From NCBI GenBank assembly GCA_963664825.1, contig OY761614.1:2592001-2656000 (forward strand): 64,000 nucleotides of DNA, read 5' to 3'. The stretch is from an uncultured Holophaga sp. Lineage in GTDB: Bacteria > Acidobacteriota > Holophagae > Holophagales > Holophagaceae. Under the pieces are notes generated by a model. The model had not been told where the DNA came from. It worked only from the letters and a program-made list of their open reading frames with translations, and ran no database searches. The position numbers and the translations under genes are program-made. Every line of letters begins with the position of its first letter. Within the stretch, counting starts at the first letter, position 1. Shown piece after piece: positions 57,791 to 64,000 of this stretch.

Positions 57791-58048
57791 TCATTCTGGG
57801 ACAGTCAGCCCACCCGCAATAAGCTCTTCCAGGCTCTTTCGCTCAACAAGCAGCCTCCGCCCGCCGTTGGGTCCGGGACGCTGCCAGATGGCCACCCTAG
57901 GCGCCTTGCGATCACAGTAGGCGGCCCGGAAGGAATCCGGTTCCATGCCCATGGCGCGGGCGGCGGCCTTCACGGGGATCCAGTTTCCTTCGGAGATTAG
58001 CTCTAGGAGATTGGCTGAATCACTGGGCAGACAGGGTCCCTGGCTCAC
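57791..58048 (-). CDS. Small HTH/excisionase-like protein, copy 2
   Basis: 85 aa; GTGA overlap with the upstream stop. Confidence 0.72.
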   Translation of the reverse strand: MSQGPCLPSDSANLLELISEGNWIPVKAAARAMGMEPDSFRAAYCDRKAPRVAIWQRPGPNGGRRLLVERKSLEELIAGGLTVPE

Positions 58049-59232
58049 TGTTCGTTCCTGGTGAACGGCTGCCCTAGCGCGTTAGCGACGGCCAGGGCGA
58101 AGGCGGAGTCATTGATGAGGAGGTCGTTAACCCGGCTGACTTCCTCCAGGTCGCGGTCCTCCGGGTTGGCGTACAGGGGATCATCCCAGATGACGAAAAC
58201 GTCCAGCGTGTGGCCATCAATAGACCAGCACTGGTAGGGAAGGCTGGGCTTGCGACGCACATAGGGGCCCTTGTCGGTGAGGGCTTTCCGAGTGCCCATG
58301 CGAAGCCCCATGAGGACGGCGGGATCCAGCTCCTGCAGGCGGCGCCGAACGGTCGCCTCGGAAATGGTGTATCCCTTCTGCTGGAGCACGTCGGCGGCGC
58401 CGATGTAGCTGCCCGTGTGGGCGAAGGCGCCACGGATTTCGTCATCCAGGCCCGGGGTTTGATCCGTGCGTCGGGGGCGGCCACAGGCGGAGTGGTGAGG
58501 CTTGAGGGCGTCGCCCGTGGGGTCCTGGGCATACAGCCCCCACCAGCGGCGCAGCGTGTTATCGCTGGGCGCGGATTTGAGGACCTTGAGGATGGCCTGA
58601 CCTTCGGAGGAGGTCCGCAGCCACTGCTGGGCCTCATCCAGGACATAGGAGGGGACTCCGCCCCGAACGGAGCGGCGTTCCCACGGATTCAGGCTGGCCA
58701 ACCTCGGGCGGACAGCCAGATCCAGGAAGCTCAGCCGCGCCTGCTGGATGGCCTGCGCCCGCTGGAGGGCGTCGGGATTGGCCCGGAGTACTACCTGCTG
58801 AGGATCGCGCTTGATCGGCGCGGGGCGGGTGGCCACGGGGCAGGGCTGGATCGAGGCCTGCTGACGCTCCCAGGCTGCGCGGGCGCCGGGATAGAGCGCG
58901 ATAAGGGCCTCCAGATGGATGGAATATTCAGTTCGCCCTTTGTTGGGGCCACTTTGGGTAATGTGAGGGGCTGCGTGCAGGCGCTCGCTCTGAATCGCCT
59001 TCAGGATGGCTTGCCTGGATTTCCCGGTTAGCTCGGCCGCTTCCGTAATCGTGAGCGCGACAACCTGTTCGGAATCTGTCGTTGTGAGCGCATCGCCCAT
59101 AACGCCATCAGAATCTATACTTTTCGAAGGATTTTGGGTCGCGACAACCGGTTGTCGCGTTGTGGCGGGGAGCGTGACAACCGTGACAACTTTGGGTTGT
59201 CGCGAGGGGATATGTTGAGGTGAGATCTGCAT
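58045..59232 (-). pseudogene. Truncated MuA-like transposase fused to the tail of a downstream gene
   Basis: Three HTH-like segments (TITEAAELTGKSRQAI; PSDNTLRRW; ISEATVRRRL) and WSIDGHTLDV first-Asp motif, then abrupt end; start may be ATG 59100. Confidence 0.78.
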
Positions 59233-59240
59233 AATCGCTT

Positions 59241-59573
59241 CTACGCGATTTCTTTCCGGAGCCGCCCCCAGATGCGGTCAGCTTCGAGCCCTAAGGTTTC
59301 TGCCAGGACGTCTTCCACCACCACGTCACGACAGTCCCGGTTGATAACCTGATGGAAGTAAGGGTCCGTGTACCCGTGCGTCTCGGCTAGCACACGGACA
59401 TTGACACCTTTGAGCTTCAGGAGGGCTCGGACGGCTTCCGGTTTCAGGCTGCCATCCAGATTGATGCCATTCGACATGAGATGTTGAACATCCGAAGCCG
59501 TGGCTAGGATGGCTTGGGTGCTTGGAGGCAGGCCATAGGCCGCCCTCTTGCGCGGGGCTTTTTCGGGTAGCAT
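59241..59573 (-). CDS. Ner/Nlp-like DNA-binding protein
   Basis: PEAVRALLKLKGVNVRVLA...EDVLAETLGLEADRIW pattern; divergent from the repressor. Confidence 0.8.
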   Translation of the reverse strand: MLPEKAPRKRAAYGLPPSTQAILATASDVQHLMSNGINLDGSLKPEAVRALLKLKGVNVRVLAETHGYTDPYFHQVINRDCRDVVVEDVLAETLGLEADRIWGRLRKEIA

Positions 59574-59603
59574 TCAAGTCTCCGATTACTTAGTTCACGA
59601 AGT

Positions 59604-60398
59604 GTGAACAGGAGAACAGTAAGTCTCGATAGGAAACACGTCAAGAGGTTGTTGCGCATCGTGAGCAAAGCTGAAATTCAGACTCCAGGCAAAAGGGTTA
59701 GACGCGCAAGGACCGCGCTGGGTAAAACTCTGGAATCTTTTGGCGCGCCAATGGAACGTTCACGTGCTGCGATTTCACGATGGGAGACGGACCAGATAAG
59801 CCTCACTGCTCTCGAAGCGGGAGCCATGGAGCACTTCCACGGCATCTCGGCCGCTTGGATCCTGAGGGGTGAAGAACCGATATGGGTTCCAGCAACCCTA
59901 GCTCCGCTAGATGATGCCGAGACCGAATATCGCCCAGTAATCCCTGGAGCCGCCTCTTGTGGGCCTGGTGGCGAAATTGCAGATCCAGGACCTTCGGCTT
60001 ACCGCCTTCCCTTCCGCAAAGACTTCCTCCAGGAGCTACTCCGCGAATGTGGAGGGGGCACCGCAGCGGATTGCTACGTTGTGGAATGCACAGGTGAGTC
60101 CATGCGTCCAACGCTCCACCCAGGAGACTTGGTGCTGATAAACACCGCGTTGGAACTGCGCGTGGAACCAGAACGGGACGCGCTCTATCTGGTACGCACA
60201 GACCCGACCAGCGTAGATGCCCGAATTAAGCGTGTCCACGTTAAGGATGATCGAATTTGTTTCGCCTCAGACGCCTCTGGATTCAAGACAATCGCGATCA
60301 ATGTGGATGGTATCCCGATCCAGCGCCTCATCCTCGGCCGCGTCTGTTGGATCGCCCGCAGTGTGGTGAAGGACGAGCGCCCAGAGCGGAACTGGTAG
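59604..60398 (+). CDS. Phage CI-type repressor (XRE HTH + S24 peptidase)
   Basis: RAAISRWE...WILRGE; GESMRPTL (Ser) and IKRV (Lys); start may be 59661. Confidence 0.9.
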   Translation: MNRRTVSLDRKHVKRLLRIVSKAEIQTPGKRVRRARTALGKTLESFGAPMERSRAAISRWETDQISLTALEAGAMEHFHGISAAWILRGEEPIWVPATLAPLDDAETEYRPVIPGAASCGPGGEIADPGPSAYRLPFRKDFLQELLRECGGGTAADCYVVECTGESMRPTLHPGDLVLINTALELRVEPERDALYLVRTDPTSVDARIKRVHVKDDRICFASDASGFKTIAINVDGIPIQRLILGRVCWIARSVVKDERPERNW

Positions 60399-60409
60399 GC
60401 GACTCGTTC

Positions 60410-60629
60410 CAACCATATTGACGGATTTAGAAGCCTCGCGCAGGATCCGAAGCTTACCCGCAGGATTCGTGCACCCTTTTTGACGGATTTCCGCTTCGTT
60501 ACGCGTCATCCGTCCCAAACTTATTGACGGATTTTCAGGTCTCTAGATCACCCACAAAGCCCCGCCCTTGTTGGCTTTTAGGCCATGTGCCCGAATCGGT
60601 CGTCATGCGAATTATTTCGACGGATCACA
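60410..60629 (-). repeat. Mu-like left end (L1 plus three internal sites)
   Basis: CA-N7-TGACGGATTT at 60410-28, 60472-90, 60516-34; terminal GAATTATTTCGACGGATCACA 60609-29. Confidence 0.82.
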
Positions 60630-60879
60630 GCGGGATTCCCCGGTGGGCCGCACGACTGGCTGCGCCCGTGTAGCGCGGCAAAATGAATCATCGGGAATCC
60701 GTCAGAATGATTGGTAGCTTTCAATCATTCTGACGGGTTTGGCCTATCGGTCTCAGCTCTCGCGACGGAAGCGGAGTCTATTGTTGAAAAGCCTCTGAAG
60801 GGCTGAACCCTGAAGGCCTCGCTGAGTGCAACATTCTTGGGGCATCCACGGGCGATCATGATGCGCTCTTGGCCTTCTC

Positions 60880-61148: not shown

Positions 61149-61376
61149 CCTCACCGCAGCCGAAGGAGATCATCATGCTGCGACTTCCTTTTTTGGGGAA
61201 TGATTCCACCCGGGCTTGGGAGTGCAGGCGGCTTGGGGTGTCCCTTGGAAAACAGCTCGGGGTGGGTCTGGAAGGTCTGATTGAACACGGCCTGCCGGGC
61301 CGCGTGGATCTCCTCGGCACGGCCTTCATGGACGCTGGCAGACGTCATCATGCCAATGCCACTGCGCCGGTGCAGG
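61149..61376 (-). pseudogene. IS3-like orfB 3' fragment
   Basis: Homologous to ~48885-49043 (HRRSGIGMMTSASVHEGRAEEIHAAR). Confidence 0.85.
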
Positions 61377-61431
61377 GTGTTGATTTTTGAAATTTCGACC
61401 GCGGGATCCGGGCTTAACCTGTACCGAAGAG

Positions 61432-61459
61432 AAAAAACAGGCACCCACATGGGTGCCTG
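61432..61459 (-). terminator. Intrinsic terminator after the RiPP precursor
   Basis: Minus strand CAGGCACCC-ATGT-GGGTGCCTG-TTTTTT. Confidence 0.88.
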
Positions 61460-61482: not shown

Positions 61483-61689
61483 TCAAATACAGGCACTATT
61501 TACTGCAATGCTGATACAAACTTGGTGGATTGAATCACAATTAAAGACTGTGTCATTGCAGTACCATGAATTACGATGCTGCGCTTCACATTTGTCTATG
61601 GGTTTGGTATACACACCACCTGCTACTTCCAGGGTATCTGCAGCGTTCAACTGCTTGAGCGTTTCCTTTGAAAGGGTGAGTTTATTCAC
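61483..61689 (-). CDS. RiPP precursor peptide (double-glycine leader, lanthipeptide-like)
   Basis: AGGAGA RBS + GTG; leader MNKLTLSKETLKQLNAADTLEVAGG; 43-aa core with 5 Cys and 6 Ser/Thr. Confidence 0.85.
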   Translation of the reverse strand: MNKLTLSKETLKQLNAADTLEVAGGVYTKPIDKCEAQHRNSWYCNDTVFNCDSIHQVCISIAVNSACI

Positions 61690-61804
61690 GGGTTCTCCTG
61701 GAAAAAGGAAGGGGATTTGAAAATTTGCATCCAACGGATGCGTTGATTGGGGATTCTTCAGTAATTCTCCGCTCTTGCTGGGTTGCGTCAAGTTATTTTG
61801 CCCT

Positions 61805-63871
61805 CTACCTGACCGGTAGCTCGATCTCTTCCTGCTCCAAAGTCGCCTCCTCGGCCCTAGTTTCCGTTCTCCCCCCCATCATGATTTCCTCGTGGCTAGC
61901 GTAGATAACGGTCCTACCTTGGAAGCGGGGGCACTGGAGGATGCGCCGGCGGCTCAACCCATCCAGATTAGAGAGAGCCTCGTCCAGAAGCAGGAGCTGC
62001 TTGTCCGAGGCCAGGACTGCAGTGATGGCAATGAGCTGGCGCTGGCCGCCGGAGAGATTGCCGCCGCCGCTGGCCACCATGGTCTGGTAGCCCATGGGGA
62101 GGGTCTTCACCCATTCAGCCAGGCCAGTCTCTTTGGCCACCTCAAAGAGATGGGTCTTGGGTCCATCGCCGGAGAAAATTCGGAGGTTTTCCAAGATGGA
62201 GCCACTTGAGAGCTGGGGGAACTGGGGAAGAAAGACCATCAGGTTGTTGGCGGCCGCACTATCCAGGCCTCCCATACTGATGCGCCCGGTGTCGGGTGTA
62301 TAGAGACCCGCCAGGAGCTTCAGGAGCGTGCTCTTGCCGGATCCGGAGGCTCCCTTCACGTGATGGAAGGTGCCGGGTTGCACACGAAGATTGGCACCCT
62401 GGAGGATCCAGGGTGCCTTTTCCTTATAGCGAAACCACACATCCTCGGCCAGCACGGGGCCCGTGAGTTCCGTAGGACCGTTCAAAGGCGTTTGGGTCAG
62501 GCGAACCGTGGCAAAGGCCTCGTGGACCTGCGCGAGTTGAGGCCTCGCCAGTGCGATGGAGAGCACCGTCTGGCTAAGACTGGTGACGGCAGCCACGAAG
62601 GCAGCGCTCAGCTGCGAAAAGGCCAGGAGCTGTCCCAGCGAAAGTTCCCCGCCGAGCACCTTGAAACCACCCCAGATGAGAATGCAGATGCTGCTGCCCT
62701 GGCTGAGGAATTCGCAGATGGCATCAGCCCAGAGTCCGATGCGGTCCTGTCTGAGGCTGTGAGCCAGTTCCACTCCCAGCTTGTCCTTCCATCGCGCCAG
62801 CACCCAGTTCTGGCTGCCTGTCGCCTTGAGCGTGGAGGCACCATTCAGGAGTTCAGCCAGCGCGCTGTGCTCCGCCTGGCTGGCCTTGATCTGGAGGCGG
62901 GTCACGCGCGCCTGCAGGTATCCGATCACGGCAGACGCGAGGCTGAGCAGTAATGCCCCCAGAATCACGACGCCCGCTACGGTCGGCATGAGCATCAGCA
63001 TGTAAACCAAATAGGCCACCGCCGTGCAGGCATCGAAGACCGCCGCCAATCCTCGGTTGAGCACCAAGGCACGGGCCCGCTTGATTCCGCTGAAGGCCTG
63101 AAGCAGTTCGCCCAGGGTCTTGCCCTGAAGGTGCTTGAAGGGCAAGTGCAACAGGTGGTCGAAGAGACCCTTTTCCATCGCCACATCAATGCGCGCGGAA
63201 AAGGCATTCAGGGTGATATCTCGCAGCCAGCCCACCCAGGCCCTGAAGAGCGCCGTGAGAATCATCCCGATGCAGAGGATCTGGAGCAGGCTGCCTGAAC
63301 CCTTGGCCAGGGCGCCGTCCATCATCCAGGCCGTGAGCCACGGGGAAATGAGCGCGAGCCCCTGGACCATGGCGGAAGCCCCCAGGGACACCAGCAGGAA
63401 TTGCCGATGCCCCGGGATCAGCTTCAGGAGGCGCATCCAGAGCCCACCCTTTTCGGGGAAGGCTTCACTGATTTCCAGAGCTGTGCCAGAGAAGACTTCG
63501 GCTAGAGCCCTTTCGGGCACAAGGCTCGCGCCGCCTCCGTGTTCCACCAGCCACCCCTTGGCGCTTCGCTTCCGCAGGAGGATCCATTCGCCCGTGTGGG
63601 TCAGCATGAGTGTGGGCAGCTGCAGATGCGCAAGATCGCTGACTTGAGCCTGAACGCACCGGGCTTCGAAGCCGCTGACGCGGAGTTTCCGGAGCAGACC
63701 ATTAACACCTGGGGCGACATTCACGTCACCTTCGTCCTCCTCGTCCAAGGTTTGCAGGGTGGTCTTGATGCCCCGATGCACTAGGAGGCGCCAAAGGGCG
63801 ATGCGGGTGGGGAGGCCTTCCAGAACATTGCCTTCCGAACGGCTCGGCTCCAGGCTTGGTTGCTCCTTCAT
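61805..63871 (-). CDS. Peptidase-domain-containing ABC transporter (degenerate C39-like domain)
   Basis: N-terminal C39-like region lacking an obvious catalytic Cys; TM domain; GASGSGKS, LSGGQRQ, LLLDEA. Confidence 0.88.
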   Translation of the reverse strand: MKEQPSLEPSRSEGNVLEGLPTRIALWRLLVHRGIKTTLQTLDEEDEGDVNVAPGVNGLLRKLRVSGFEARCVQAQVSDLAHLQLPTLMLTHTGEWILLRKRSAKGWLVEHGGGASLVPERALAEVFSGTALEISEAFPEKGGLWMRLLKLIPGHRQFLLVSLGASAMVQGLALISPWLTAWMMDGALAKGSGSLLQILCIGMILTALFRAWVGWLRDITLNAFSARIDVAMEKGLFDHLLHLPFKHLQGKTLGELLQAFSGIKRARALVLNRGLAAVFDACTAVAYLVYMLMLMPTVAGVVILGALLLSLASAVIGYLQARVTRLQIKASQAEHSALAELLNGASTLKATGSQNWVLARWKDKLGVELAHSLRQDRIGLWADAICEFLSQGSSICILIWGGFKVLGGELSLGQLLAFSQLSAAFVAAVTSLSQTVLSIALARPQLAQVHEAFATVRLTQTPLNGPTELTGPVLAEDVWFRYKEKAPWILQGANLRVQPGTFHHVKGASGSGKSTLLKLLAGLYTPDTGRISMGGLDSAAANNLMVFLPQFPQLSSGSILENLRIFSGDGPKTHLFEVAKETGLAEWVKTLPMGYQTMVASGGGNLSGGQRQLIAITAVLASDKQLLLLDEALSNLDGLSRRRILQCPRFQGRTVIYASHEEIMMGGRTETRAEEATLEQEEIELPVR

Positions 63872-63872
63872 A

Positions 63873-64000
63873 TCACCCACGGCCCGCCTCCATGGCCATA
63901 ACGATCTCTCGGAAGGCGCCTGCCTGTTTGGAGAGTGCAGCATAGGTCCCCTGCTGGGCGATGCGCCCATCCTCCAGCACCAGGATTCGATCCGCGTCCT
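63873..64000 (-). CDS. ABC transporter C-terminus (partial; upstream partner exporter)
   Basis: My translation ...DADRILVLEDGRIAQQGTYAALSKQAGAFREIV...RG*; stop 1 nt before the next ATG. Confidence 0.85.
   Translation of the reverse strand, partial: DADRILVLEDGRIAQQGTYAALSKQAGAFREIVMAMEAGRG

Follow-up and report, generated by a model that had tools for sequence, protein, structure and literature searches.

A candidate class I lanthipeptide precursor with a double-glycine leader beside lanB, lanC and C39 exporter genes in an uncultured Holophaga

The locus considered here lies near the right-hand end of a 64,000-nucleotide stretch of an uncultured Holophaga sp. genome (contig OY761614.1, positions 2,592,001 to 2,656,000; hereafter the window), and raises the question of what is made from a short, cysteine-bearing peptide gene, lanA1, and by which enzymes. 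An initial annotation, made from the letters of the window, had proposed a lanthipeptide-like precursor with a Gly-Gly leader, matured by class I enzymes or, alternatively, by a radical-SAM enzyme. The window belongs to one 3.47-Mb contig, and the coordinates of the cluster are given in window numbering that runs on beyond 64000, obtained by subtracting 2,592,000 from the genome position (Table 1).

Translation of the minus-strand open reading frame gives the 68-residue protein and the stop exactly as first written, and bears out its division into a leader, a Gly-Gly site and a 43-residue core with Ser/Thr and Cys at the positions claimed. The leader residues L4-x-L6-x-K8-x5-L14, followed by G24-G25, conform to the LxLxKx5L motif as described in the accessible text of preprint 10.1101/2020.03.13.990614. 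The core is slightly acidic, and its Ser/Thr and Cys residues follow the order T3 C9 S16 C19 T22 C26 S28 C33 S35 S40 C42. The ribosome-binding site and terminator ascribed to the gene are both present; the hairpin is persuasive by its position and shape rather than by count, as the scan returned 3 terminator-like sites against 2.4 expected. The one promoter-like site (61791-61764, 9/12) is no more than chance would give, with 0.9 expected. The mechanical reading frame starts at TTG 61791 and runs to 102 residues, 34 codons earlier than the GTG; it had been judged to start too early, and the one database record for the protein has the 68-residue form. The G+C content of lanA1 is 42% and that of lanA2 and lanA3 46%, below the 58-62% of the enzyme genes and the genome-wide 64%. 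Contigs from public runs of two studies, one of which may come from the source sample, each span lanA1 and the end of the adjacent ABC gene with zero differing letters, so the linkage of the two genes is unlikely to be an assembly error.

Table 1. Features of lanA1 and its gene cluster, in window numbering continued past 64000
Feature	Coordinates	Strand	Remarks
lanA1 intrinsic-terminator-like hairpin	61438..61459	minus	9 pairs + T-run, 3' of stop
lanA1 (68-aa precursor)	61483..61689	minus	GTG start; translation and stop; NF038153 match 17.6-19.1 bits
lanA1 core, 43 aa	61486..61614	minus	5 Cys, 6 Ser/Thr, net charge about -1
lanA1 leader, residues 1-25	61615..61689	minus	LxLxKx5L motif and Gly-Gly cleavage site
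lanA1 ribosome-binding site AGGAG	61695..61699	minus	5 nt 5' of GTG
Second ABC exporter subunit	61805..63970	minus	degenerate C39-like N-terminus; start codon uncertain
C39-peptidase ABC exporter, 711 aa	63873-66008	minus	PF03412; 3' end 63873..64000 inside window
HlyD	66012-67283	minus	beyond window end
LanB, 1084 aa	67328-70582	minus	PF04738 + PF14028
Precursor lanA2	70883-71053	minus	NF038153 match 17.4 bits
IS66	71466-73094	not minus, unlike the cluster genes	outside coding sequence, between lanC and lanB
LanC, 438 aa	73154-74470	minus	PF05147
Precursor lanA3	75527-75730	minus	NF038153 34.5 bits, over cut-off 22

The cluster reads, all on the minus strand, lanA3, lanC, lanA2, lanB, hlyD, two ABC genes and lanA1, and lanA1, one of its three precursors, lies directly behind the exporter genes and 5.6 kb from lanB. 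The earlier remark that the window holds no maturase gene is correct for the window itself, but the two exporter genes extend into it, with LanB 3.3 kb and LanC 9.2 kb beyond its end; inspection of the sequence past position 64000, as had been proposed, returned full-length lanB and lanC and no radical-SAM gene nearby. The five enzyme and exporter genes each have a full-length open frame. LanB and LanC are each the sole copy in the genome, and the 3.47 Mb contain only three matches to the L1a-leader model NF038153, all within 15 kb of that lanB and lanC. Against the curated cut-off of 22 bits, lanA3 scores above and lanA1 and lanA2 below (Table 1), and the LanA1 leader matches a family leader profile strongly (E 1e-8), a profile that includes the LanA1 leader itself. 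The core stands apart: a homologue search with the LanA1 peptide returned only LanA1 (1 candidate), and the core resembles 57 other family cores no better than shuffled sequences do (best score 35, against a shuffled mean of 35.3). An orthologue of lanA1 showing selection on the core was found neither by the homologue search, nor in the DNA of the two closest relatives, nor among the family cores. A Pfam search of the three precursors gave 0 families, and an Atlas search with LanA1 gave only leads below 0.9, to lanthipeptide-leader clusters.

The enzymes and the exporter retain their characteristic domains and active-site residues. Pfam E-values are 6e-159 (PF04738) and 8e-68 (PF14028) for LanB, 5e-41 (PF05147) for LanC and 4e-36 (PF03412) for the transporter. 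Cys16, His89 and Asp105 are present in the first ABC exporter, and we take them to serve in its C39 peptidase domain, set at residues 1-140 of the protein. The N-terminus of the second ABC subunit is related to C39, has Trp at the catalytic His position and gives no Pfam C39 match, and the two subunits would therefore form a heterodimer with one active peptidase. For TolC-type channels, 19 OEP-domain matches occur in the genome. Residues of LanB and LanC were matched to NisB and NisC by printed alignments with an index check. LanB Y80, R83, R87, T89, D121 and D299 correspond to NisB Y102, R105, R109, T111, D145 and D329, and Y776, R784, R786, E823, R826 and H961 to NisB Y834, R842, R844, E884, R887 and H1038; Y80, R83, Y776 and H961 presumably keep the functional roles of their counterparts. 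R464, which the NisB alignment does not cover, is equated with R505 solely through the GRF motif common to MibB. LanC is a stand-alone cyclase with Cys-Cys-His zinc ligands and a catalytic His, in which D139, H210, R280, C284, Y285, C333 and H334 correspond to NisC D141, H212, R280, C284, Y285, C330 and H331; CHG occurs together with WCYG in 116 of 120 LanC homologues. Roles for LanB R87, T89, D121, D299, R464, R784, R786, E823 and R826 and for the NisC residues are described in the accessible parts of PMC7296275, PMC9486935 and PMC9934072. LanB carries the Arg that the accessible literature gives as typical of anti-eliminating enzymes, and ordinary Z-dehydrobutyrine would therefore be expected. 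A genome search for the fusion enzymes of classes II, III and IV (LanM, LanKC, LanL) found none, the only LanC-like match being the 438-residue stand-alone protein, far below the cut-offs.

It is thus very probable that lanA1 encodes a class I lanthipeptide precursor matured by the neighbouring LanB and LanC; the class, the Gly-Gly leader and the C39 ABC export foreseen in the initial annotation all find their counterparts in LanB, LanC, HlyD and a C39 transporter beside lanA1 on the same strand. Judged from its sequence, LanA1 would be class I by every feature tested, and would belong to the L1a-leader group by motif, though it scores below the curated NF038153 threshold. LanB would bind the LxLxKx5L leader, glutamylate core Ser/Thr using Glu-tRNA and then eliminate glutamate to leave dehydro residues, and the zinc enzyme LanC would join the thiol of each Cys to a dehydro residue, which most likely lies N-terminal of that Cys. 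Both tRNA-Glu of the host end in U72-A73, and some LanB require the tRNA-Glu and GluRS of their host. The C39 transporter would cut after the Gly-Gly, and the 43-residue core would be secreted in a type I-like manner through the C39 ABC protein, its peptidase-dead partner, HlyD and a TolC-type channel encoded elsewhere. In nisin-type systems the protease is separate. We infer dehydration, cyclisation, cleavage and export alike by analogy with characterised systems.

The order of residues in the core bears on which rings may form. The product could carry up to five thioether rings (T3-C9, S16-C19, T22-C26, S28-C33 and S35 or S40-C42), and possibly one free dehydroalanine. The calculated mass of the core is 4887.2 Da unmodified, 4797.2 Da with five dehydrations and 4779.2 Da with six. 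A layout that gives each Cys a separate Ser/Thr, placed between it and the preceding Cys and no more than 7 residues ahead of it, arises in 0.18% of 200,000 shuffles of the core, under a rule that was set post hoc; the pattern is non-random, and a serial five-ring topology is plausible. A set of 58 family cores contains 285 Cys; for 265 of them a Ser/Thr stands 2-6 residues upstream, compared with 184 +/- 8 in shuffles, and for 202 one stands downstream, which supports a preference for N-terminal partners. These 58 cores are what remained of 70 hits after removal of 12 with a low score or no Gly-Gly/Gly-Ala split, and include near-orthologues and a few uncertain cleavage calls. In viridisin A1, according to the accessible text of PMC9680876, dehydration spared one Ser and mass spectrometry left overlapping rings unassigned, and for this reason the serial five-ring model of LanA1 may be wrong.

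The surroundings of the cluster are rich in mobile DNA, with insertion sequences, multi-copy elements and phage-like repressor and transposase remnants on both sides and a transposase fragment between lanC and lanA3. Inverted, 81%-identical fragments of one integrase-core transposase (61166-61382 and 75026-75243) flank the lanC-to-lanA1 block, and at its edges resemble the remains of a composite transposon. To the left of the cluster, 58045-60631 contains a transposase-like remnant, a small open reading frame and an S24-type repressor, and the repressor region repeats 25 kb rightward (85257-85960, 79%) and near-identically 800 kb away (867588-869050). A separate locus (L003:6924-12216, genome 1,668,924-1,674,216) has another Gly-Gly peptide gene (59 residues, three Cys), next to it a low-GC gene for a 542-residue membrane protein with a VKOR domain. 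After these, hlyD and the C39 ABC gene recur as a 95%-identical copy with an internal deletion, fused to the tail of the second ABC gene. No maturase was seen at this locus.

Since IS66 and lanA2 split lanC from lanB and transposase fragments flank the cluster, its transcription may be disturbed, and a rival reading holds that the locus, though of class I lanthipeptide descent, is silent or decaying here, with no modified LanA1 made. The IS66 insertion between lanC and the lanB operon, the inverted fragments, the multi-copy elements and repressor repeats would all fit such a fate, the deleted second hlyD-ABC copy shows that cassettes of this kind decay in this genome, and related Gram-negative operons are described, in the accessible literature, as mostly cryptic in the laboratory. 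The five full-length enzyme and exporter genes with their catalytic residues, the intact ribosome-binding site and terminator of lanA1 and the position of IS66 outside coding sequence nevertheless argue against decay, and we consider this outcome unlikely. It is improbable that LanA1 needs only the transporter and leaves the cell unmodified, or with disulfides, as a bacteriocin-like double-glycine peptide: its place directly behind the exporter genes, away from lanB, and its leader score below the curated cut-off would suit such a peptide, but the odd number of Cys, the Ser/Thr upstream of every one of them and a leader motif shared with lanA3, which passes the cut-off, and fitting the family profile (LanA1 leader included) would not. 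The suggestion that the thioethers are made by a radical-SAM enzyme, of sactipeptide or ranthipeptide type, found no support and is highly improbable, for although several Asp/Asn adjoin Cys in LanA1 and lanA2 weakly matches the radical-SAM target model TIGR04149 (17 bits, cut-off 25), the genome's 31 radical-SAM matches all lie at least 470 kb from the cluster, the sole SPASM match is found 880 kb away, and LanB and LanC are adjacent and intact.

For the class I product, the role, like the ring topology, is a guess. We lean slightly towards a secreted effector or signal rather than an antibiotic, because the core is acidic, neither of the two lipid II motifs named in the accessible text of 10.1101/2020.03.13.990614 is present in it, no immunity gene was seen among the open reading frames of the cluster, and the viridisins are described, in the text available, as having no antimicrobial activity. 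A narrow-spectrum antimicrobial is less favoured, although a real possibility.

Comparison with relatives indicates which parts of the cluster are conserved. The host is a Holophagaceae bacterium of the Acidobacteriota; the two closest LanC loci among species genomes are from Holophaga sp. (86-87% identical), and further named homologues come from Geothrix, Pyrinomonadaceae and Thermoanaerobaculia. LanB is present in 2 of 8 other genomes of the host genus, and a metagenome scan with LanB returned only distant relatives (22-33% identical). In the two closest relatives lanC, lanB, hlyD and both ABC genes have 80-86% DNA identity to this cluster, and no DNA match to lanA1, lanA2 or lanA3 was found in them; as the relatives share the block, with lanC next to lanB, and none of the three precursors, the precursors turn over around a conserved set of enzymes. 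The closest relative (G007) has lanC and lanB 31 bp apart, four different precursors and a second lanC, and no precursor was found on the contig of G008, which stops 0.9 kb short of lanC.

Across the family, the curated leader model has matches in 21 of 133 genomes at E <= 0.05 and in 0 of 14 controls, and a profile of 50 leaders, circular for the genomes that supplied leaders, has matches in 23 of 133 at E <= 0.001. LanB is present in 21 of those 23, the remaining two being 81% and 90% complete; it occurs in 70 of the 133 family genomes, many of them with no leader matches. All five genomes of genus g7 have numerous precursors, a single LanB each and 1-4 LanC-like matches; counts at E <= 0.01 are 16 (G014), 14 (G123), 26 (G029) and 35 (G125), and at E <= 0.001 there are 10 in G124. 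In G014 (2 contigs, 97% complete) both LanC are in the lanB cluster, and 15 of the 16 leader matches, spread over nine other places, lie over 15 kb from lanB; all 16 precursors were read, and their cores are rich in Cys and Ser/Thr. The assemblies of G029 and G125 are fragmented, which blurs what is far from lanB. A Pfam search of 64 neighbouring open reading frames (of 98 picked) at 16 loci of dispersed precursors found no radical-SAM enzyme, LanM or LanB; it found two satellite LanC and, repeatedly, genes for LytS-type kinases and LytTR regulators. Dispersed precursors in genomes of the g7 type are probably processed in trans by one LanB.

Several side observations concern the modifying enzymes and cores of the family. 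Satellite modules of one precursor and a lanC occur away from lanB (L165 in G029, L173 in G123, G024:C38 and G009), and G009 and G024 have 9 and 6 LanC-like matches for 1-2 LanB, which suggests dedicated cyclases sharing one dehydratase. A second widespread LanB group is found in g5 and g16 (e.g. G023, G034, G137): 40 of 62 g5 genomes have LanB and only 4 a leader match, and no LanC was found in the three LanB-bearing g16 genomes tested, so that this group is possibly a cyclase-less dehydration module. Very long repetitive cores are also encoded under the same leader (L038:95-415 in G033 and L135 in G009; 84 residues with 17 Cys, and 87 residues with 14 Cys).

The proximity of precursors to sensor kinases differs among genomes. 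The precursor loci that have a PF06580 kinase within 3 kb number 5 of 10 in G014 (0.19 expected), 4 of 9 in G123 (0.19), 3 of 17 in G029 (0.35) and 8 of 23 in G125 (0.79), four cases that belong to one genus and are not independent, followed by 1 of 3 in G091, 1 of 2 in G135, 1 of 7 in G136, 0 of 3 in G077, 0 of 2 in G007 and 0 of 2 in the host, where none of 11 LytS-type kinases has a precursor within 3 kb. Dispersed precursors often stand beside LytS/LytTR genes in G014:C2 (e.g. L157, L158, L160, L183, L184), G029 (L162, L164, L167), G123 (L171, L193, L194) and G125, and related peptides lie beside orthologous kinases in some pairs (L184/L194, L158/L193/L167). In the second LanB group, that of g5 and g16, three genomes have lanB about 1 kb from a LytS-type kinase (G091:C1:2470552, G077:C18:584776, G064:C1:266078). 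On a quick kinase tree with two poorly aligned rows, the precursor-adjacent label needs 5 changes, against 10.8 in shuffles, and a single group of weak support (80) takes in the kinase of the G123 core cluster together with 11 of the 13 kinases adjacent to precursors; this is clustering, not co-evolution. On top of processing in trans, peptide-receptor signalling through the adjacent LytS/LytTR proteins is conceivable but somewhat doubtful, and on the simpler reading the kinases do no more than regulate the peptide genes beside them. That the host cluster is the compact form of a Holophagaceae system, in which one LanB and one to a few LanC serve a genome-wide library of 10-35 hypervariable lanthipeptides, many of them signals for adjacent LytS/LytTR systems, we hold to be rather unlikely.

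Parallels to most elements of this system have been described. The viridisins (VdsA1-3, VdsB and VdsC of Thalassomonas viridans), the thalassomonasins and Pedobacter Ped15, as far as the accessible text of PMC9680876 goes, likewise combine a Gram-negative host, a full-length LanB and separate LanC, multiple precursors per cluster and double-glycine leaders, a likeness to the Vds, Tln and Ped systems drawn from their published descriptions; the present system differs in its acidobacterial host, an unrelated core and an exporter of C39 ABC, peptidase-dead ABC and HlyD proteins. Class I precursors with LxLxKx5L and Gly-Gly (NF038153 and the accessible text of 10.1101/2020.03.13.990614) share the leader motif, the cleavage site and a clustered C39 protease, but the preprint describes them from Bacteroidetes, and the term 'Acidobacteria' is absent from its main text. 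NisB/NisC, MibB and related class I structures (PDB 4WD9, 5EHK, 9G04, 2G02, 8BYK) have the same domain architecture, catalytic residues and Cys-Cys-His zinc site, although nisin-type systems use FxLD leaders (accessible text of the same preprint), in contrast to the LxLxKx5L leader of LanA1 and its core with no lipid II motif. Like the prochlorosins (ProcM/SyncM; accessible text of PMC12328550 and PMC11251773), G014, G029, G123 and G125 have a conserved leader, hypervariable cores, scattered precursors and one dehydratase; prochlorosins are made by one class II LanM with a CCG zinc motif, whereas here a class I LanB is encoded with 1-4 LanC bearing CHG. No function is assigned to prochlorosins in the accessible text of PMC11251773. 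Such dispersal is not a feature of the host genome, where the three precursors are all clustered, and is seen, by gene counts, in one related genus. The scheme seen in these relatives points to a class I system of prochlorosin type, which may serve in signalling; the host genome has no kinase link.

From the phylum itself, the accessible text of PMC13083261 (2026) presents aci (class III) and tha (class II with a GMC oxidoreductase), lanthipeptide-type clusters of other synthetase classes, as the first RiPP modifications characterised from Acidobacteriota, and holds no class I case. A term search of the accessible text of PMC8100337, on wastewater Acidobacteriota, found no mention of lanthipeptides. 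Literature searches, which reached few subscription journals, listed nothing that links lanthipeptides to Holophaga, describes a class I system from Holophagaceae or scattered precursors of that class, or pairs a lanthipeptide with LytS, and the present precursors may be listed in the precursor tables of the RODEO study. The chemistry, leader class and architecture of LanA1 are published; the peptide itself is new.

LanA1 thus brings a new 43-residue core, with up to five rings, from a phylum with almost no characterised RiPPs. If the LanB and LanC enzymes of the family do take dozens of unrelated cores behind a single 25-residue leader, they would be useful macrocyclisation tools, and the precursor-kinase pairs of the family would offer a direct route to asking what non-antibiotic lanthipeptides of Gram-negative bacteria do.
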